NCBI GenBank assembly: GCA_035461765.1
Contig: DATHUY010000004.1
Coordinates: 18,368-82,367, forward strand
Direction of reading: 5' to 3'
Source of the DNA: Longimicrobiales bacterium
GTDB taxonomy: Bacteria; Gemmatimonadota; Gemmatimonadetes; Longimicrobiales; RSA9
Length of the DNA: 64,000 nt
Shown: piece by piece, positions 7,554-60,711 of the stretch
Numbering within the stretch: the first letter of the stretch is position 1
Layout of the letters: each line of letters begins with the position of its first letter
Made by a program: the position numbers and the translations under genes
Notes under the pieces: generated by a model
Databases searched by the model: none
What the model saw: only the letters and a program-made list of their open reading frames with translations
What the model was told of the DNA's origin: nothing

Positions 7554-7676
7554 GGCGGCGGTGTCCACCCGGCGCTCGGACAGTCCTCGTCGCGGGGGCG
7601 GCGGTGTCCACCCGACGCTCAGACAGTCCTCGTCGCTTCGCTCCTGCGGAACTCGCGGCGGGTGGACACCGCCGCC
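7554..7676. repeat. Hairpin repeat family 1: half copy (7554-7593) followed by a complete copy (7597-7676)
   Basis: 18-bp perfect inverted repeat GGCGGCGGTGTCCACCCG (7597-7614) / CGGGTGGACACCGCCGCC (7659-7676) around a 44-nt loop. The preceding 40 nt repeat the left arm plus half the loop with 2 mismatches. Related copies lie at 45667-45740 and 45820-45905. Starts 30 nt after the tex stop. Confidence 0.85.
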
Positions 7677-7843
7677 GCCTCCGCCTGACGGGATGCCACC
7701 CCGCTGCTCTGCCTCCATGGCGGTGGGGCAGGGCGTCGCCAGCCTGGCGGGCCGGAGCGGGGGAATCGGCAGCCAGCGCGTCCTGAGGTTGCAGGGCGCC
7801 TCTCATCGTCCCACTCTACAGCACTGCGAACGGAGCAGGCGCA

Positions 7844-13881: not shown

Positions 13882-13966
13882 CGCGAGGTACACCACCGTG
13901 CCGCGATGGGAAAAGGATGGCTTAACCCGGACCGGCAGAAGATTGGCCGCGCACGAAGAACTGAAC

Positions 13967-14036
13967 ATGCCCGTGCCCATGCCCGTAAACGTGTGCGTGC
14001 GCCTTCCACATGCCCGTGCCCGTGCCCACGCCCATG
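13967..14036. repeat. Two arrays of 6-nt periodic units (RTGCCC)n in a convergent intergenic gap
   Basis: ATGCCC GTGCCC ATGCCC GT (13967-13986) and ATGCCC GTGCCC GTGCCC ACGCCC ATG (14010-14036), between the esterase stop (13881) and the DDAH stop (14087). Same 6-nt periodic design as the GGGAGC/GGGATC elements, but with no opposing arm. Confidence 0.6.
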
Positions 14037-22481: not shown

Positions 22482-22600
22482 CGAAAGCGGGAGCGGGATC
22501 GTGTTCGGGAGCGTGTTCGGGAACAGCGGCGCTCCAGATGCATCGTATGTTGTTCCCGCTCCCGAACACGAACACGATCCCGCTCCCGCTCCCGATTTCC
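22482..22600. repeat. Hexamer-modular palindromic element, copy A (fills the gap between convergent stop codons)
   Basis: Left arm 22482-22524 is CGAAAGC[GGGAGC][GGGATC][GTGTTC][GGGAGC][GTGTTC][GGGAAC]. Right arm 22552-22600 is GTTCCC GCTCCC GAACAC GAACAC GATCCC GCTCCC GCTCCC GATTTCC. The loop is 27 nt. The element is bounded by the S8 stop (22479-81) and the actP stop (22602-04). Confidence 0.9.
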
Positions 22601-22601
22601 T

Positions 22602-28313: not shown

Positions 28314-28485
28314 GAACGGCCGAAACGGCCGCACGCGCACGCGCACTCGCACGCGGGCGGGGGCGTCATTTGCTGGATGATATTGCCGCCGGCGGTCTGG
28401 CCCTGTGGCGGTCTGCCGGCGGGGAAGCTGCGCGAAATCCCGCGTGCGTGTGCGCGTCCGCGTGCGCGTGCGGCCGTTTCCGTTC
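28314..28485. repeat. long inverted repeat with (GCGCAC)n-type 6-nt periodic arms in a divergent promoter region
   Basis: Left arm 28314-28357 is GAACGGCCGAAACGGCCGCACGCGCACGCGCACTCGCACGCGGG. Right arm 28439-28485 is CCCGCGTGCGTGTGCGCGTCCGCGTGCGCGTGCGGCCGTTTCCGTTC (reverse complement nearly identical). The 81-nt spacer contains GGCGGTCTG twice. Confidence 0.8.
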
Positions 28486-33519: not shown

Positions 33520-34221
33520 TCAGTCGGCCGGATACTCCCTCTTCTCATAGACCTGCGCGATCCGGGTACCATCCCAGACGTACGTCAGATGCAGCGATGC
33601 GCGGCATGTGCGGATCCGGCGCGGCCGGAAGATCGCCACGCACTGACCGCCGTCATGGCGCACGCTGTCGTACGCGATGCCGTCACTGCCCTCCCCGCGC
33701 AGCCGGGCCGCCAGTCCCTGCGATGCGCCGTAGTCCTCGGGGTCATAGATGTCGGGGAGCGTGTCGCGGCGCCCGCGCAGGTCGTGCAGGCGCGCGTCCA
33801 GCTCCGCCTCCAGCACCCGCATGTCGAGCTCCATCGGCCGCTCCCGCGTCGCCAGCATGAACTTCGCACGATGATAGCTGCTCTCCGCGATCGCCGTTTC
33901 CAGTGCACGCGCCGCGTAGTACGCGCCCAGCCGCCCATCGTTGAAGCGCGCGCCGGCCGGCGCGGGGTGCGTGAACGCCGCCATCACGTATCCCGCACCC
34001 GGGCCGGCCACACGCTCCGCCGCGGGCACCATGTGGATCTGCCCCAGCTGGTCACGCAGCCGGTCGTTCGTCAGTGACTCCAGCTCGTGCACGGCGGCCA
34101 GGTCCTCCGCACCCGCCACCCGCTCGAACAGGTCGATCGGCGGAAAACGGCTCGGGATGATGCGGTAACACGTCCGCCACCGGACCCGGCGCCGCGGCGG
34201 CTCTGTGGGCTTCAGCTCCAT
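33520..34221 (-). CDS. RES domain toxin (MbcT/ParT-like NAD+-targeting family)
   Basis: WRTCYRIIPSRFPPIDLFERV.. is the N-terminal extension. RES core: GARFNDGRLGAYYAARALETAIAESSYH ... GIAYDSVRHDGGQCVAIFRP (R..E..S order). Confidence 0.85.
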   Translation of the reverse strand: MELKPTEPPRRRVRWRTCYRIIPSRFPPIDLFERVAGAEDLAAVHELESLTNDRLRDQLGQIHMVPAAERVAGPGAGYVMAAFTHPAPAGARFNDGRLGAYYAARALETAIAESSYHRAKFMLATRERPMELDMRVLEAELDARLHDLRGRRDTLPDIYDPEDYGASQGLAARLRGEGSDGIAYDSVRHDGGQCVAIFRPRRIRTCRASLHLTYVWDGTRIAQVYEKREYPAD

Positions 34222-45819: not shown

Positions 45820-45905
45820 GGCGGTGTTCACCCGGCGCTCGGACAAGTCCTCGTCGCGTCACTGGCGCGCCGCTCCTGCGGAGCTCGCGACGGACGATCA
45901 CCGCC
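45820..45905. repeat. Hairpin repeat family 1, degenerate copy
   Basis: GGCGGTGTTCACCCGGCGCTCGGACAAGTCCTCGTCGC matches copy 7554-7593 with 1 substitution and a 1-nt insertion. The right side ..CTCCTGCGGAGCTCGCGACGGACGATCACCGCC is diverged. A further fragment (CGCTGGGACAGTCTCCGCGCTGC) lies at about 45780-45803. Confidence 0.7.
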
Positions 45906-55633: not shown

Positions 55634-55756
55634 ACGATCGGGAGTGGGATCGGGAGCGTGTTCGTGACCGGGATCGGGAACTGCTTCAAGCGCGTCCGCC
55701 GTGGCGCGCGGTCCCGATCCCGCCAACCGAACACGCCCGATCCCGCTCCGAGTCGG
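55634..55756. repeat. Hexamer-modular palindromic element, copy B
   Basis: Left arm 55634-55681 is ACGATC[GGGAGT][GGGATC][GGGAGC][GTGTTC][GTGACC][GGGATC][GGGAAC]. Right arm 55710-55756 is GGTCCCGATCCCGCCAACCGAACACGCCCGATCCCGCTCCGAGTCGG. Begins 8 nt after the upstream stop. Confidence 0.85.
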
Positions 55757-55826
55757 TTCAGAACAGGCAGCCCACTTTCAGTGTATCGAGCCTGTGGACA
55801 ACGGTATCACGGCAGGAGGAAGTAAG

Positions 55827-56234
55827 ATGAAGCAGGTTATTGTCGGGCTGGCAGCTCTGCTGGTAGTAGTCGTGGCGCAGCCGGCGGCTGCTCAGCAGCG
55901 GGAGCCGGTGGAGCCCGCGCGGAGCGTGGAAGAGGTGATCGATTCGAGCGGCATCGTGCAGGCCGTGGAGGCGCTCGCCGTGTCGGCGACGCCCGAGCTG
56001 GAGCGCGCACTGGGTCAGCTCGCGCAGGCGCTCAGCGTCGTAGTCGCCCGCATCGCGGCCGATCCGGAGCTTCGCTCCTCGGCCGTACGCGCTGGTGTCG
56101 GCATGGCCGAAGTCGCCGAGGCCGCGGTCGTCGAGCACTCCAGCACACTTCAGGATGCTCTGCGCGACCTCGCGGATCGCCTCGAGGAGCTTGCCGGCGA
56201 ACGCCGTCCGCCTGCCGGCGTTCCTATTCGATGA
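55827..56234 (+). CDS. secreted Ala/Glu-rich helical protein, unknown function
   Basis: A strong AGGAGGA lies 7 nt upstream of ATG 55827. Signal peptide is MKQVIVGLAALLVVVVAQPAAAQQ. Confidence 0.65.
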   Translation: MKQVIVGLAALLVVVVAQPAAAQQREPVEPARSVEEVIDSSGIVQAVEALAVSATPELERALGQLAQALSVVVARIAADPELRSSAVRAGVGMAEVAEAAVVEHSSTLQDALRDLADRLEELAGERRPPAGVPIR

Positions 56235-56328
56235 GGAAGTTCATCATCATTCCCATGTCTTCATGCTCCAGGTTGTGGCAGTGGAGCATGAACAGCCCGG
56301 AAGTGCGCTGCGACCATACTGGATGAGA
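56224..56328 (-). pseudogene. C-terminal remnant of a multicopper oxidase
   Basis: Own minus-strand translation: ..SHPVWSQRTSGLFMLHCHNLEHEDMGMMMNFLIE*. It contains the type-1/type-3 copper motif HCHxxxHxxxxM at the extreme C-terminus. No upstream MCO body exists; the frame runs into palindromic element C and hits a stop at 56365-56367. Confidence 0.7.
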
Positions 56329-56329
56329 C

Positions 56330-56425
56330 CGAATCGAGGAGCGGGAGCGGGATCGGGACCGCGCCTACACGTGTCCGGATCGGTTCCCGATCCCGAACAC
56401 GCTCCCGGTCCCGCTCCCGAATTCG
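56330..56425. repeat. Hexamer-modular palindromic element, copy C
   Basis: Left arm 56330-56360 is CGAATCGAGGAGC GGGAGC GGGATC GGGACC. Right arm 56377-56425 is GGATCGGTTCCCGATCCCGAACACGCTCCCGGTCCCGCTCCCGAATTCG. Ends 3 nt before the stop of the 56429 gene. Confidence 0.85.
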
Positions 56426-56428
56426 TTC

Positions 56429-56764
56429 CTAGAGCAGCACCGCCAGGATGATCCCGCCGAGCACGATCGCACCGACCAGCCACCAGAAGTTGCGCGGGGC
56501 CGTGACGTCCTGGGCTGCTTCGTCCATGTCGGCTGGCGCGCGCATGGTCGCAGCGTCGATCGCCGTGGCCGTGGGGCTGCGCGGGCTCAGGTCGACGGAT
56601 GGGACGGGCGCTTCCGGTGCGCGGGCCGGTGCTGCCTCAGCCGCCGCCGGAGCCGGCGCGGCGGGCGCGACTTCGGTCGTCACCGGCTCCTGCGGGACGG
56701 GGTCCTGCGCCTGAACGGCGGTGGCGCAGAAGAACAACAGCGCGAATGCAGTAAGTCTTCTCAT
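56429..56764 (-). CDS. secreted Pro/Ala-rich protein with C-terminal TM anchor
   Basis: GAGG lies 5 nt upstream of ATG 56764. Signal is MRRLTAFALLFFCATAVQAQ. C-terminal anchor is FWWLVGAIVLGGIILAVLL. Confidence 0.55.
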   Translation of the reverse strand: MRRLTAFALLFFCATAVQAQDPVPQEPVTTEVAPAAPAPAAAEAAPARAPEAPVPSVDLSPRSPTATAIDAATMRAPADMDEAAQDVTAPRNFWWLVGAIVLGGIILAVLL

Positions 56765-56927: not shown

Positions 56928-59195
56928 ATGATTGCACGCATACGCTCCGTGCTCGCCACGGCGACTATCCTGTCGGGTATCGTCTCGGCCGCGCACGGCC
57001 AGACGCGCCCGATGACGTTTCTCGACATGCAGCACATGCGCACCGGTGGCGCGGAGACGCCGAGTCCTGACGGGCAGTGGCTGCTCTATACCGTGGCCGA
57101 GCCGGACTGGGACGAGGCGGAGCGGCAGATGGACCTGCATATCGTCTCGCTGCGCGAGGGTGTCTCGTCCTCGCGGCAGCTGACATTCACGACGGACAGC
57201 AACGAGGGATCGCCCGCGTGGCTGCCGGATGGCAGCCGGTTCCTGTTCCTGTCGAACCGCGACGCGCCTGCATCGAGCCGGAACCGCATGCAGCTGTATG
57301 TCATGCGTCATGATGGCGGCGAGGCGCGGCGGATCACGGACGCGACGGAGGGTGTGTCGAACTACGAGATCAGCCGGGACGGCCGGTGGCTGGTGTATCG
57401 CAGCGGCAAGTCAGGCGAGGAGCAGCTGTATCGTCTCCCGGTGGCGACGCTCGACAGCGCGGAGCCGGCGCCGGAACAGATCACGAAGCAGGCCGCGGGT
57501 GTGGGCAGCTGGGAGTGGGCGCCGGACAGCCGTCGCATCTACTTCATCACGGCCGACACCGTGGACGAGGCGGAGAAGCTGCGGCGCGAGAAGGACTTCA
57601 CGGTCGACATTTACAACATGGAAACGCCGCTGTCGAGCCTGTGGTCGATCGACCTCGATCCGGTGCGGGTGACGCGGCTCACGCGTGATACGACCCTATC
57701 GGTATCCGGCTTCAATGTCTCGCCCGACAGCCGCTGGGTCGGATTTCGTGGCACATCGGCGGATCGTTACCGGCGCAACATCACGGAGGAGGGCATCAAC
57801 ACCGACCTCTATCTGCTCGAGGTCGCGACCGGCAGCATCGAGCGCCTCACGGAGAACCAGGAGGTCGGCGAGAGCGGACCGGACTTCTCGCCAGACGGGC
57901 GCTGGGTCGCGTTCAGCGCACCGGATGATCTCACACGTTACACGATGTCGAACCGTCGCGTGTACATCCGGCCGGTCGCGGAACGCGGCGGGCAGTTCCG
58001 CAAGCTGGGCTCGTCATTCGATGGCGACGTCGGCATCAGTTTCTGGTCCCCGGACTCGCGCACGATCTACTTCAACACCGGTGTGCGTGCTACGCGACAG
58101 CTCATGGCGCTCGACATCGAGCGGGACCGGGTCCGTCAGGTCACGCAGGAGCGCGCCGCTCTGTCCGTCGATCGCGACGAGCGGACGGGCGTGGTGCTCA
58201 TCACGTACCAGGACCCGAAGACGCCGACGACGCTCTTCACGGTACCGTCGCTCGACCGCGTCGCGAATCGCTCCGCGTGGCGCCAGCTCATCGACGTGAA
58301 CCCGCAGGTGAGCGAGTGGGCGCTGGGCGAGGAGGAAGAGATCACGTGGACGTCGACGGACGGGAAGCCGGTAAGCGGCGTGCTCGTGAAGCCCGTCGGC
58401 TACCGCGAGGGGCAGCGCTACCCGCTGATCGTCGCGATCCATGGCGGTCCCGCGTCGGCCGATGTGCTCGGCTTCAACGGCGGCTACGGCGCGCAGGTCT
58501 ATGCCGGCGCGGGCTACGCGGTGCTCCGGCCGAACTACCGCGGCTCGACCAACTACGGTGAAGCGCACAAGACGGATATCGTCGGCAACTACTTCGAGCC
58601 CGGCTACAACGACATCATGAGCGGCGTCGACCATCTGATCGCCGAAGGCATCGTCGACGGCGACCGCATGGGTGCGCTCGGCTGGAGCGCCGGCGGCCAC
58701 TGGTCGAACTGGATCCTGGTGAATACGGACCGCTTCAAGGCGATCAGCTCCGGTGCCGGCACATCGAACTGGATATCCATGTATGCGCAGAGCGATGTGC
58801 AGCGGAACCGGCAGTTCTACCTCGGCAACGAGCTGCCGTACGACGACTTCGACGCGTACTGGGACCAGTCGCCGCTCAAGTACATCCGGAACGCGAAGAC
58901 ACCGACCATGATCCACGTCGTGAAGGGTGATCCGCGCGTGCCGAGCCCGCAGTCGGTCGAGCTGCACATGGCGCTCAAGAAGATCGGTGTCCCGACCGAG
59001 CTCTACATGTATCCCGGCAACTCGCACGGCATCCCGGACCCGCGCAACCGCCTCGTGAAGTCCGTCAGCGAAAAGGCGTGGATGGATTATTACGTGCTGG
59101 GCACGGGCCGCAAGTTTGTATGGCGCGATGTTCTGGAGACGCTGGAGAAGGCGGAAGCGGCCGAGACGGCGCGGGTCAGTACTGGCGGGAACTGA
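56928..59195 (+). CDS. S9 family serine peptidase (TolB-like propeller + prolyl oligopeptidase domain)
   Basis: Lies in ORF 56721..59195 with ATG at 56928 (MIARIRSVLATATILSGIVSAAHGQ). Propeller repeats SPDGQWLLY, SRDGRWLVY, SPDGRWVAF. Nucleophile is GALGWSAGGHWSNW. The acid/His region is VKGDPRVP..GNSHG. Confidence 0.9.
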   Translation: MIARIRSVLATATILSGIVSAAHGQTRPMTFLDMQHMRTGGAETPSPDGQWLLYTVAEPDWDEAERQMDLHIVSLREGVSSSRQLTFTTDSNEGSPAWLPDGSRFLFLSNRDAPASSRNRMQLYVMRHDGGEARRITDATEGVSNYEISRDGRWLVYRSGKSGEEQLYRLPVATLDSAEPAPEQITKQAAGVGSWEWAPDSRRIYFITADTVDEAEKLRREKDFTVDIYNMETPLSSLWSIDLDPVRVTRLTRDTTLSVSGFNVSPDSRWVGFRGTSADRYRRNITEEGINTDLYLLEVATGSIERLTENQEVGESGPDFSPDGRWVAFSAPDDLTRYTMSNRRVYIRPVAERGGQFRKLGSSFDGDVGISFWSPDSRTIYFNTGVRATRQLMALDIERDRVRQVTQERAALSVDRDERTGVVLITYQDPKTPTTLFTVPSLDRVANRSAWRQLIDVNPQVSEWALGEEEEITWTSTDGKPVSGVLVKPVGYREGQRYPLIVAIHGGPASADVLGFNGGYGAQVYAGAGYAVLRPNYRGSTNYGEAHKTDIVGNYFEPGYNDIMSGVDHLIAEGIVDGDRMGALGWSAGGHWSNWILVNTDRFKAISSGAGTSNWISMYAQSDVQRNRQFYLGNELPYDDFDAYWDQSPLKYIRNAKTPTMIHVVKGDPRVPSPQSVELHMALKKIGVPTELYMYPGNSHGIPDPRNRLVKSVSEKAWMDYYVLGTGRKFVWRDVLETLEKAEAAETARVSTGGN

Positions 59196-59322
59196 ATTCG
59201 GGAGTGGGATCGGGATCGTGTTCGGTTCGCGGGATCGGGACCGTTCTTCCAGCTGGACCCTCGGTCTGGATCCGTTCCCGATCCCGCACACGAACACGAT
59301 CCCGATCCCGCTCCCGATTTCG
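59194..59322. repeat. Hexamer-modular palindromic element, copy D (fills the gap between convergent stop codons)
   Basis: Left arm 59194-59242 is GAATTC[GGGAGT][GGGATC][GGGATC][GTGTTC]GGTTCGC[GGGATC]GGGACC. Right arm 59268-59322 is GGATCCGTTCCCGATCCCGCACACGAACACGATCCCGATCCCGCTCCCGATTTCG. It overlaps the TGA at 59193-95 and ends at the TAA at 59323-25. Confidence 0.9.
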
Positions 59323-59820
59323 TTACTGCACCACCAGCGTCCTCTCCGCTCGCGGCCTCTGCTGCGATCCCGGCGGCGGCTGCAACTCGAACTCGACGCG
59401 TACGACGTAGGTGCCTCGGGGAGCGGGCGCTCCCTCGATATCCCCGGTCTCCTGGGCATACAGCTCCGCCCGCATCGGCCACTCGTACGTCTTTGTCTCA
59501 CCCGGTGCGAAGACATGGGTCGTGATGGCCGCGGTGCAGCCCCACAAGCTGCCCTTGAACGGCACGCGCACCCCGTTGCGGTACACGCCCGGCAGGACGA
59601 GGCAGCCATGCGACGTGACAATCTGCATGGTGGACGTGGTGGTATTCGTCGCCGTGAAGCGGGCCGTGAACGGCGCGTGCTGCATCACCTCATCGTCGTC
59701 GAGAACCAGCGAGACCTCCAGCCCGTCCGGCAGACCGCCCGTGGAGTCGGAAGGCGATAGAATCTCCGTACAGCCCGTGAGCAGCAGAAATCCCAGGAAC
59801 AGAAGACTATTTCGTCGCAT
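59323..59820 (-). CDS. lipoprotein, unknown function
   Basis: Lies in ORF 59323..59901. ATG 59820 gives MRRNSLLFLGFLLLTGC. A beta-rich 165-aa product. Confidence 0.6.
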   Translation of the reverse strand: MRRNSLLFLGFLLLTGCTEILSPSDSTGGLPDGLEVSLVLDDDEVMQHAPFTARFTATNTTTSTMQIVTSHGCLVLPGVYRNGVRVPFKGSLWGCTAAITTHVFAPGETKTYEWPMRAELYAQETGDIEGAPAPRGTYVVRVEFELQPPPGSQQRPRAERTLVVQ

Positions 59821-59885: not shown

Positions 59886-59968
59886 GTCCCGCGCACCGCA
59901 CACGAACACGATCCCGCTCCCGCTCCCGATTTCGTCAGGCAGGAAGCTGACACTCGGGAATGGGGATC
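59886..59968. repeat. Hexamer-modular element, copy E (solo C-rich arm plus short degenerate partner)
   Basis: 59886-59934 is GTCCCGCGCACCGCACACGAACACGATCCCGCTCCCGCTCCCGATTTCG, nearly identical to the right arms of copies A and D. A short G-rich partner TCGGGAATGGGGATC lies at 59954-59968, next to the amidase stop. Confidence 0.7.
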
Positions 59969-60711
59969 TAACCGTCGGCGTTCCCGGCGTCGTCGGACAG
60001 GAAACGGATGATACCATCCGCGATGCCCCGCGCCGCGCGGTCCGGCTCGGCGACGATGACGCGACGGTCGCGCGCACTGGTGAGGAACCCGGTCTCGATG
60101 ATGACACCGACCGTCATCGGGTGCAGCGCGTGATGATAGCGACGCGAATTGAACGCGTAATAGCCGCGCATGCGGCGAGTGATCGTCGGGTAGAACGGCA
60201 GGGCAGTCGCCTCGCCGTACGCCTCGTTCAGCACCTGCACGAGGTCCTGCGCGCGGCCGGTGCGGTCACGACGCGGCGCAGCCGCGCGGTAGCCGGAGAG
60301 CGACGTGTTCGGATTGCCGTCCGCGTGGATGGCGACGAAGACATCCGCCCAGTAGCCGGGCGGGATGGTGGTGGGCAGGATGTCGACTGCGTAGCCGGCG
60401 TCCTCCAGCCGCTCGGCCGCGCGCGTTGCGATGGCGAGGTTGACCTCCCACTCTGCCTTGCCACCGCCGCGCGTGCCGTTGGTGCGGAGCCGCGCCTGCT
60501 CGTCTGGCGCTTCCGCGGCCTTCCAGTGACCCGCCTGGAGTGCGACGCGGATCGGTCCGTCCGGCCGCTGCCAGTTCGCGTACGGATCCGGGTCGACAGG
60601 TGGCGCAGCCTCTTCGGGCGCGGACATGTCGGAGTCGGCGCCGTCCGGGATGTTGAACGCGACGATCGCGAAGATGAGTGGCAGGCCGAGCAGGATGGCG
60701 GCTGATTTCAT
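59968..60711 (-). CDS. N-acetylmuramoyl-L-alanine amidase (Amidase_3 family)
   Basis: Signal/anchor is MKSAAILLGLPLIFAIVAF. ALQAGH, GKAEWEVNLAIA, VFVAIHADG and VIIETGFLTS are Amidase_3 zinc-ligand contexts. Confidence 0.8.
   Translation of the reverse strand: MKSAAILLGLPLIFAIVAFNIPDGADSDMSAPEEAAPPVDPDPYANWQRPDGPIRVALQAGHWKAAEAPDEQARLRTNGTRGGGKAEWEVNLAIATRAAERLEDAGYAVDILPTTIPPGYWADVFVAIHADGNPNTSLSGYRAAAPRRDRTGRAQDLVQVLNEAYGEATALPFYPTITRRMRGYYAFNSRRYHHALHPMTVGVIIETGFLTSARDRRVIVAEPDRAARGIADGIIRFLSDDAGNADG

Follow-up and report, generated by a model that had tools for sequence, protein, structure and literature searches.

Among described systems, the closest to the elements reported here is the intervening sequence (IVS) of 23S rRNA that contains an open reading frame (ORF). 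In these IVSs RNase III cleaves the stem, the heptamers repeated in tandem beside the ORF differ in number from strain to strain, and the ORF itself decays (PMC4990558). Mobility has been suspected and never explained and the origin is unknown, and the nature and movement of the IVS and the role of its S23p/Avd-like ORF have stood open from the early 1990s on (PMC4990558). Here we describe a family of long palindromes built from hexamer modules in a stretch of 64,000 nucleotides (nt), hereafter the window, from a Longimicrobiales (Gemmatimonadota) metagenome-assembled genome (MAG; GCA_035461765.1, contig DATHUY010000004.1, positions 18,368 to 82,367), and compare it with these IVSs and with other known systems.

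Sequence comparison shows that the window palindromes are homologous to arms which enclose genes of the four-helix-bundle family PF05635 in close relatives, with one such gene at the site that copy D of the family occupies in the window. We consider it probable, at about 0.6, that the window copies are the gene-less hairpin form of an element resembling the ORF-bearing 23S rRNA IVS, the full-length form of which carries a PF05635/TIGR02436 gene; the direction of derivation, the spread of the element and its role at RNA 3′ ends are what we infer beyond this homology. The design of G-rich arm, ORF and C-rich arm recurs in distant lineages, each with its own vocabulary of short modules. An earlier description made from the letters of the window without database searches, here called the sequence-only reading, had missed that the same arms flank or enclose PF05635 genes in relatives, and this observation changes the most probable derivation of the palindromes.

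Five copies, A to E, are found in the window at the positions which that reading had reported (Table 1); A, B, C and D are complete and E is a half copy. The hexamer arms it had described were confirmed by a pattern count, in which three consecutive GKGWKC modules (at most one mismatch) occurred 29 times against 0.20 expected and all 29 matches fell inside A–E. A looser two-module scan of the window gave no copies beyond these five, and the arm pairs were recovered by a repeat search of the window. Each complete copy is 96–129 nt long. It opens with (A)AC and the terminal module GAAWYC, continues on the + strand with in-phase hexamers (GGGAGC, GGGATC, GTGTTC, GTGTGC, GGGAAC/GGGACC), and passes through a loop into a C-rich arm of reverse-complement modules which ends in GRWTTC-GT(T). 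The order and number of modules in the C-rich arm are similar to those of the G-rich arm and not identical to them. Three details of the earlier description had to be amended. The loops measure 22–31 nt and not 16–28 nt. The termini are conserved as described, although the supposed terminal motif CGAAAKC represents one more hexamer module (GAAATC/GAATTC/GAATCC), which follows the conserved (A)AC. Copy E is a solo arm as described, but it does not extend over 59886–59968: the C-rich arm only reaches ~59934, 33 nt downstream of the amidase stop (59968–59970) and ~66 nt upstream of the lipoprotein start at 59820.

Folding of the arms, which had been suggested as a check, gave stable hairpins. The predicted stems are near-perfect over ~40–50 bp, with free energies of −59 to −101 kcal/mol and z-scores of −4.6 to −12.5 on both strands. 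Taken alone, an arm has a G or C skew and lacks self-complementarity. Since the layout of G-arm, loop and C-arm is its own reverse complement, transcripts arriving from either direction meet the G-rich arm first, and no member of this family with the opposite polarity (C-rich arm 5′) was found in the window or in relatives. The statement that there is no U-tract held in so far as no run of at least five U occurs at the elements, but the conserved 3′ terminus reads GAUUUCGUU in RNA from both strands and thus has a short U-rich tail (UUUCGUU). A classical intrinsic terminator was rejected: its defining U-run is absent, and a consensus scan for hairpins followed by a U-run gave no match at the elements and 7 in the whole window against 4.5 ± 2.2 expected, which is no enrichment. 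CRISPR arrays, low-complexity coding sequence and chance were rejected as well, as the spacing is irregular, the copies lie outside ORFs and 29 matches were seen against 0.2 expected. No Rfam family, tRNA or rRNA was matched in the window.

The S9 peptidase whose gene precedes copy D in the window is 100% identical to a protein of a Longimicrobiales MAG, and relatives L136–L143 were collected through its orthologues; all relatives used in this work are short-read MAGs or metagenome contigs. In contig L139, with an S9 peptidase 88% identical to that of the window, two G-arms in tandem come directly after the S9 stop; beyond them lie a PF05635 gene encoded on the − strand and a third G-arm, where the contig ends. 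This third G-arm (CGAATCC, three GGGAGC, GTTGTC, GGTTCGC, GGGAGC) is 84% identical to the left arm of copy D, and the 7-mer GGTTCGC is common to both. L143, whose S9 peptidase has 86% identity, carries a PF05635 gene in a different gap from site D. This gene and its counterpart in L139 are 87% identical, and the 47-nt arms that enclose the L143 gene are separated by 543 nt and show 91% complementarity. The outer arm, read in the G orientation, is 88.6% identical to the right arm of copy D over 44 nt, with eight modules in the same order, and 86.7% identical to copy E. The minimum-free-energy (MFE) fold of the whole 656-nt L143 element pairs the outer arms, and a small complete hairpin is nested beside the PF05635 gene. 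On the same contig, site D is occupied by a hairpin without a gene, and a solo G-arm lies at another place (L143:1511). The four-helix-bundle proteins of L139 and L143 matched TIGR02436 and the structure 2GSC (Xanthomonas S23p), the latter match being given by the L143 protein in particular, and had no match in PADLOC.

Overall, of nine related genomes, five carry a copy of the family at the S9 3′ end and two have another hairpin there. Among the remaining D sites, L136 has a shorter and different G/C hairpin, L140 has a small plain hairpin, and L141 and L142 have no hairpin at the S9 3′ end. A search for an empty site by alignment of the PadR–S9 gaps of L136 and L143 found only a degenerate C-type relic in the gap of L136. 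The L137 D site (L137:11929-12083) has a G-arm of ~16 hexamers (GGGCGC/GGGAGC/AGGAGC) facing a C-arm of five modules, a strongly asymmetric hairpin with a microsatellite-like expansion of the G-arm. L138 is a twin of L139, 99.9% identical over 5.6 kb, but with four tandem arm units in place of two; L138:5786-5940 and L139:5553-5665 differ by two 24-nt arm units (CGAATCC GGGAGC GGGAAC GGCTA). The expansion or contraction by slippage that had been proposed from the window is supported by these L137 and L138/L139 differences, whereas no evidence was obtained for the other proposal, a protein that reads 6-bp steps. The twins are only 97.3% identical across the adjacent four-helix-bundle segment, a discrepancy that suggests either a chimeric assembly or conversion from a paralogue.

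The design is not confined to this order. A 23-nt exact match to the terminus, searched in metagenome contigs without regard to genes, was found at three loci, two of which (one locus in two samples) lie just upstream of a PF05635 ORF. A clade of four-helix-bundle proteins that are 85–96% identical across Lentisphaerae, Desulfobacterota and Gammaproteobacteria (L124, L126, L134) is always encoded between inverted arms of 33–35 nt, 82–91% complementary and 383–402 nt apart. The arms are built of GAAATC, GGGATC and GCTATC, modules and terminus (atCGAAATC GAAATC GGGATC...) agree with those of the window, and the C-arm, read in frame, gives a ...DPDPDSDFD tail. In contig L088 (Gemmatimonadaceae) a PF05635 gene lies inside 47-nt arms of 7-nt modules, 87% complementary, one of which ends exactly at the stop of a convergent gene. 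In L088, L124, L126 and L134 alike, the G-rich arm is 5′ of the ORF on the coding strand. The identity of 85–96% across phyla suggests recent horizontal spread, as does contig L135, in which a four-helix-bundle gene of that clade adjoins an ISL3 transposase and an integrase fragment. Arm pairs at four-helix-bundle genes were identified by repeat search; unconstrained RNAduplex runs on the flanks gave long spurious duplexes and were uninformative. TIGR02436 is a very large family annotated only as "four helix bundle protein"; a single-sequence search gave 3,910 representatives of 50%-identity clusters, and many of the family matches cover only part of the query.

Further hairpins were seen on these contigs. 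L088:323-1159 and L090, downstream of MacB-like genes, have hairpins that begin at the stop codon and consist of telomere-like 7-nt modules (GGGGTTC, GGGGTTA). L122:5990-8000 (64.5% GC) has several palindromes of GTGAAC/GTGTAC hexamers with the opposite polarity (C/T-rich arm first), which adjoin a four-helix-bundle pseudogene with GGGATC arms.

With respect to the ORF-containing IVSs known from the 23S rRNA of Coxiella burnetii, Leptospira and Xanthomonas (S23p, PDB 2GSC), the similarities are a long inverted-repeat stem enclosing a PF05635 ORF in relatives, short tandem repeats by the ORF that vary in number between strains (heptamers in Coxiella), an ORF that is prone to deletion, and the existence of ORF-less forms. 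The differences are that our copies lie between protein-coding genes at their 3′ ends and not in helix 25 or 45 of 23S rRNA, that the arms are 40–50 nt of G3N3 hexamers with a strict G-first polarity, and that the elements are multi-copy and homogenised within the genome, with no ORF in the window copies. The window family has the stem of an IVS without its rRNA location, and the ORF was seen between arms of the family in the relatives L139 and L143 and not in the window copies. The enclosed gene also belongs to the same superfamily (PF05635/bAvd-like) as Avd of diversity-generating retroelements, but no reverse transcriptase and no template or variable repeats were found beside the four-helix-bundle genes of L139, L143, L126 and L134. 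We propose the grouping of four-helix-bundle-associated hairpin elements, to which the window copies are assigned by their terminus, their G-first hexamer arms and the homology of these arms to arms around a PF05635 gene.

If the gene-less copies derive from gene-bearing ones, loss of the gene would most likely have occurred by internal deletion, for example by recombination between directly repeated G-arms. In sequence, the left arm of copy D looks like a junction of two L139 arms, with a 5′ part as in the outer arm (GTGTTC) and a 3′ part as in the inner arm (GGTTCGC...), which is suggestive only. Contigs L122 and L123 represent the same locus, in L123 with an internal deletion of the ORF, and so offer a direct view of gene loss. 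The partial coverage of the query by many matches to the family in the protein search also speaks for loss. Afterwards gene conversion, or replacement from other copies, would maintain the likeness of the copies within a genome, and whole hexamers would be gained and lost by slippage.

A sister MAG, DATHVW01, at 84–90% DNA identity to the window, gave evidence on how the arms change. A scan of genome contigs with a 19-nt core pattern was too permissive, with ~110 of 120 matches being chance occurrences inside genes of GC-rich genomes, and the real copies were all in this Longimicrobiales MAG (L007, L044, L117). It holds A (in L117), D and the half-copy E at orthologous sites, E again being a solo arm and more decayed; the comparison of orthologous loci called for earlier accordingly found these three copies kept in the sister MAG, next to the 5 of 9 genomes with a copy at the S9 site. 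Between orthologues the loops are 52–56% identical and essentially unalignable, and the arms are 71–86% identical, with differences that are mostly insertions and deletions of whole modules. Across nine elements, partner arms are more similar (77.2%) than non-partner arms (71.8%; permutation p ~0.001), which indicates that pairing is maintained. The S9 stop differs, being TGA|ATTC in the window and TAA|CGAATTC in the sister MAG; both are at the element edge, and the last few residues of the protein differ. Within the window, the A-right, D-right and E arms have 89–93% mutual identity versus 73–75% to their orthologues. The termini are genome-specific, with GAATCC in every L139 and L143 arm and GAAATC or GAATTC in the window. 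Paralogous arms that are closer than orthologues, together with genome-specific termini, are the signature of concerted evolution or of repeated replacement within the genome. No match to the terminus was found in the viral contigs scanned. Translations of the arms in the Asp-Pro frame (VPDPAHEHDPDPAPDF...) likewise had no match in a protein search; the arms of the Longimicrobiales clade are untranslated, whereas the C-arm of the L122 clade encodes a (D-P/S/F)n tail.

Several points weigh against a gene-less form derived by loss. Among the main ones are the small amount of sequence available from this lineage and a direction of derivation that could be either loss or gain. No four-helix-bundle gene was detected by six-frame hmmsearch in ~95 kb, made up of the window, the adjoining 6.7 kb and 24 kb from the sister MAG. 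On the S9 tree, a single-lineage gain at site D is as parsimonious as repeated loss of the gene, and the hairpins could then be targets of four-helix-bundle cassettes and not their remnants. The gene of L139 and L143 has a directly repeated arm on one side, an arrangement more complex than arm–ORF–arm, and the loops of the window copies are too short to show an ORF relic. No target-site duplication or empty site that would attest mobility was found. RNase III cleavage, termination and RNA stabilisation are inferred effects. The short-read assemblies of the relatives can misassemble repeats, another of the main caveats. Finally, contig L125, which is 99.87% identical to the window over 14 kb, has 19 differences, all outside the elements, and no copy has changed in this strain.

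One alternative, which we regard as rather unlikely, is that the palindromes are non-mobile hairpins selected by the host as bidirectional transcript ends, with arms maintained only for the 3′ structure that the genes require, and that the four-helix-bundle genes are selfish cassettes which integrated secondarily, for instance through homologous recombination with one of the arms, which would thereby be duplicated. It would account for an S9 3′ end that keeps some hairpin in most relatives despite sequence change (L136, L140), for copies that persist at orthologous sites and are stable between strains, for the directly repeated G-arms that bracket the gene of L139 and L143, as expected after integration into an arm, and for the presence of a gene at site D in only one related genome. 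The lack of enrichment of classical hairpin-plus-U-tract terminators (7 versus 4.5 ± 2.2 expected) also fits. It leaves unexplained the near-identical arms (89–93%) and genome-specific termini at unrelated genes, the solo arms (E; L143:1511), the tandem arm units of L138 and the inverted arms, each in its own vocabulary, around four-helix-bundle genes in distant phyla; moreover, some S9 orthologues (L141, L142) have no hairpin.

The genes around the copies are ordinary. The 47 window ORFs scanned were assigned by Pfam to peptidases, transporters, oxidoreductases and other chromosomal genes, and no transposase, integrase, Y1 transposase or four-helix-bundle gene was among them. Copy A fills the convergent stop-to-stop gap 22482–22601 between a subtilase gene (+) and a sodium:solute symporter gene (−). 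Copy D fills the gap 59196–59322 between the stop of the S9 peptidase gene (+) and that of a lipoprotein gene (−; stop 59323–59325), and the S9 TGA (59193–59195) overlaps its terminal module. Copy B starts 7 nt past a TAG that ends a BTAD/TPR gene, and is followed downstream by the + strand gene 55827–56234, which encodes a small secreted protein and was placed on the + strand by its signal peptide, its ribosome-binding site and the call on the 99.87% identical contig. The gap of B is most likely co-directional and that of C convergent, as judged from this strand assignment. The right end of copy C is 3 nt from the stop (56429–56431, −) of a 111-residue gene. One part of the stop adjacency claimed by the sequence-only reading failed: the TGA to the left of copy C is no gene end. 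There the element adjoins a relic of a multicopper-oxidase C-terminus (window 56237–56330, −; ~33 codons, ...LHCHNLEHEDMGMMMNFLIE*), which is 90% identical in DNA to the end of the intact gene in L068 and is cut exactly at the left edge of the element, suggesting a rearrangement or deletion at the element. Within 4.4 kb, four successive intergenic gaps each hold a copy (B, C, D and E). A sixth, short copy (TGAC GAATCC GGGATC GGGGGC ... GCTCCCC GGATTC) lies in a convergent gap of the same genome at L125:690-738, ~6 kb past the right end of the window.

Table 1. Copies of the palindrome family in the window. MFE in kcal/mol for the + and − strand.
Copy	Position	Parts	MFE (+)	MFE (−)	z	Modules and remarks
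A	22482..22601	G-arm 22483-22524, loop 22525-22551, C-arm 22552-22599	−72.8	−75.9	~−8.7	G-arm GAAAGC GGGAGC GGGATC GTGTTC GGGAGC GTGTTC GGGAAC
B	55634..55757	G-arm 55634-55681, loop 55682-55705, C-arm 55706-55757	−82.1	−75.7		termini irregular
C	56330..56428	G-arm 56331-56360, loop 56361-56382, C-arm 56383-56424	−59.4	−62.9		
D	59194..59322	G-arm 59194-59242, loop 59243-59273, C-arm 59274-59321	−100.8	−94.0	~−12	G-arm holds odd 7-mer GGTTCGC
E	~59886..59934	solo C-rich arm				reverse complement GAAATC GGGAGC GGGAGC GGGATC GTGTTC GTGTGC...

The proposed link to gene 3′ ends was upheld when gaps were counted on a rough gene map with approximate denominators: copies are in 3 of ~7 convergent gaps, 2 of ~35 co-directional gaps and 0 of ~8 divergent gaps, or 3 of ~7 versus 2 of ~43 (hypergeometric p ~0.016). 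In most of ~25 aligned termini from the window and relatives a T(A/G)A lies 0–3 nt from the conserved AC (TAAC GAAATC, TGAC GAAATC), and the palindromic ends (TAAC...GTTA) therefore supply or overlap stops for genes entering from either side. Neither arm contains a stop codon in any reading frame, so that an insertion lacking a terminal stop would lengthen the protein by ~40 residues; avoidance of this extension alone could select for exact abutment to stops.

Because the copies directly follow stop codons, they should be transcribed as mRNA 3′ ends from either side. Such ends would fold into stems of ~40–50 bp with the short UUUCGUU tail, and the expected effect is that transcription would stop or pause from both sides, or that the double-stranded end would be trimmed by RNase III and block 3′ exonucleases. 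A role as a barrier to transcription or RNA decay is plausible from the position, stability and persistence of the copies at gene ends. B and C fold slightly better, by a few kcal/mol, on the strand transcribed from the adjacent upstream gene, which is a weak hint (n = 2) of selection at the RNA level. A hexamer stem could tolerate slippage by re-registering, and, as a speculation, GTGTTC and GTGTGC at fixed positions would lock the register and break quadruplex-prone G-runs.

An action of the arms at the DNA level, with G3N3 runs forming G-quadruplexes, R-loops or cruciforms as binding or pause sites for DNA or RNA polymerases and no RNA hairpin involved, appears improbable to us. The G-first polarity would present RNA polymerase with a G-rich non-template strand from either side, and some relatives have at least four consecutive GGGAGC modules, a canonical quadruplex motif (L139). 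In the window, however, GTGTTC modules interrupt the G-runs and canonical quadruplex motifs are mostly absent, and the co-variation of partner arms favours pairing between the arms.

The extragenic, palindromic and homogeneous character of the copies and their clustering in consecutive gaps recall repetitive extragenic palindromic (REP) sequences and the hairpin-forming REP doublets (REPINs), which likewise lie at gene ends, often in convergent gaps, form populations within a genome and have proposed roles in termination and mRNA stabilisation. On this account a single-copy REP-associated tyrosine transposase (RAYT; IS200/IS605-like Y1 transposase) elsewhere in the genome would copy the family, and some termini do hold TTAC, the IS608-type cleavage tetranucleotide. 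We find it very hard to sustain: the termini are (A)AC GAAWYC and lack a GTAG or CGTC head, each arm has a G or C skew, is not itself palindromic and cannot form its own small hairpin, the stems are 40–50 bp against units of 20–40 nt, and the gene found inside the arms is a PF05635 four-helix-bundle gene and not a Y1 transposase. The RAYT/IS200 partner suggested by the sequence-only reading was not found among the 47 window ORFs or in the Pfam gene lists of ~110 kb of related contigs. That reading was right, on the other hand, in treating the copies as a genuine dispersed family unlike REP sequences or bacterial interspersed mosaic elements (BIMEs), enterobacterial repetitive intergenic consensus (ERIC) sequences and classical miniature inverted-repeat transposable elements (MITEs). 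A MITE derived from an insertion sequence with a DDE transposase and these terminal inverted repeats would match the size (~100–130 nt) and the dispersal of the copies through the genome. Even so, we give it very little credence, as no direct repeats (target-site duplication) were seen flanking the copies, the whole element is a hairpin and not short terminal repeats around unrelated DNA, and no transposase was found between such arms at any locus, where only PF05635 genes are enclosed.

The termini also brought to mind integron attC sites in a cluster lacking its integrase. Such sites, for example the Vibrio cholerae repeats, are imperfect palindromes of similar length in species-specific homogeneous families, with AAC...GTT ends at or overlapping the stop of the upstream cassette; our copies have (T)AAC...GTT(A) termini, often overlapped by a stop codon, a length of 96–129 nt, and four members in consecutive gaps within 4.4 kb. 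The termini are reminiscent of the R″/R′ boxes of attC. This explanation is extremely improbable. There is no integrase in the window and no cassette array, the flanking genes are large, housekeeping-type, in both orientations and syntenic across species, unlike promoterless co-oriented cassettes, only AAC/GTT and not the full RYYYAAC/GTTRRRY boxes are conserved, and the four-helix-bundle gene lies between arms and not between complete sites.

A broader generalisation is possible, and we advance it only tentatively: four-helix-bundle (S23p/Avd-like, TIGR02436) genes in modular hairpin arms may be a widespread and undescribed class of selfish element, of which the ORF-bearing 23S rRNA IVS is one special case. 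The elements would colonise gene 3′ ends, decay to gene-less hairpins, and then be homogenised and co-opted as transcript-end structures, with the small protein recognising the hairpin for spread or maintenance. We found no description in the full-text literature of PF05635/TIGR02436 genes tied to intergenic palindromes, although coverage was incomplete and an earlier description is possible. Should the link be general, it would open a setting in genomes, away from rRNA, for following the insertion, decay and homogenisation of such elements by comparative genomics, and would explain long palindromes without a U-tract at gene ends in GC-rich uncultured phyla, which might pass for REPs, attC sites or assembly oddities if the link were not known. 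It would also point to experiments on termination, RNase III processing and binding of the protein to the hairpin.

Other repeats and palindromes were noted in the window. Two tandem C-type hexamer arms without an inverted partner lie in a convergent gap at 13966–13986 and 14009–14036; they read CATGCC CGTGCC... on the + strand, or GGGCAT GGGCAC GGGCGT on the − strand, a vocabulary that differs from that of A–E. This gap (13.97–14.04 kb) is the only place outside A–E where runs of at least three G3N3 modules occur, and its arms may represent an additional vocabulary for elements of this kind. A long palindrome in a divergent gap (28322–28480) has 42-nt arms, 86% complementary, of GCGCAC-type hexamers with GAAAC termini and a 75-nt spacer that contains its own hairpin (MFE −119 kcal/mol, z ~−6). 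The gene of a RES-domain toxin (33520–34221, −) and a convergent 2-oxoacid:ferredoxin oxidoreductase subunit gene face each other, with 9 nt between the end of the former and the stop of the latter. A separate repeat family, GGCGGTGTYCACCCGRCGCTCRGACA..., is present at 7557–7582, 7600–7625 and 45820–45845, with an inverted partner at 7655–7679, and forms strong hairpins in two intergenic regions of the window.

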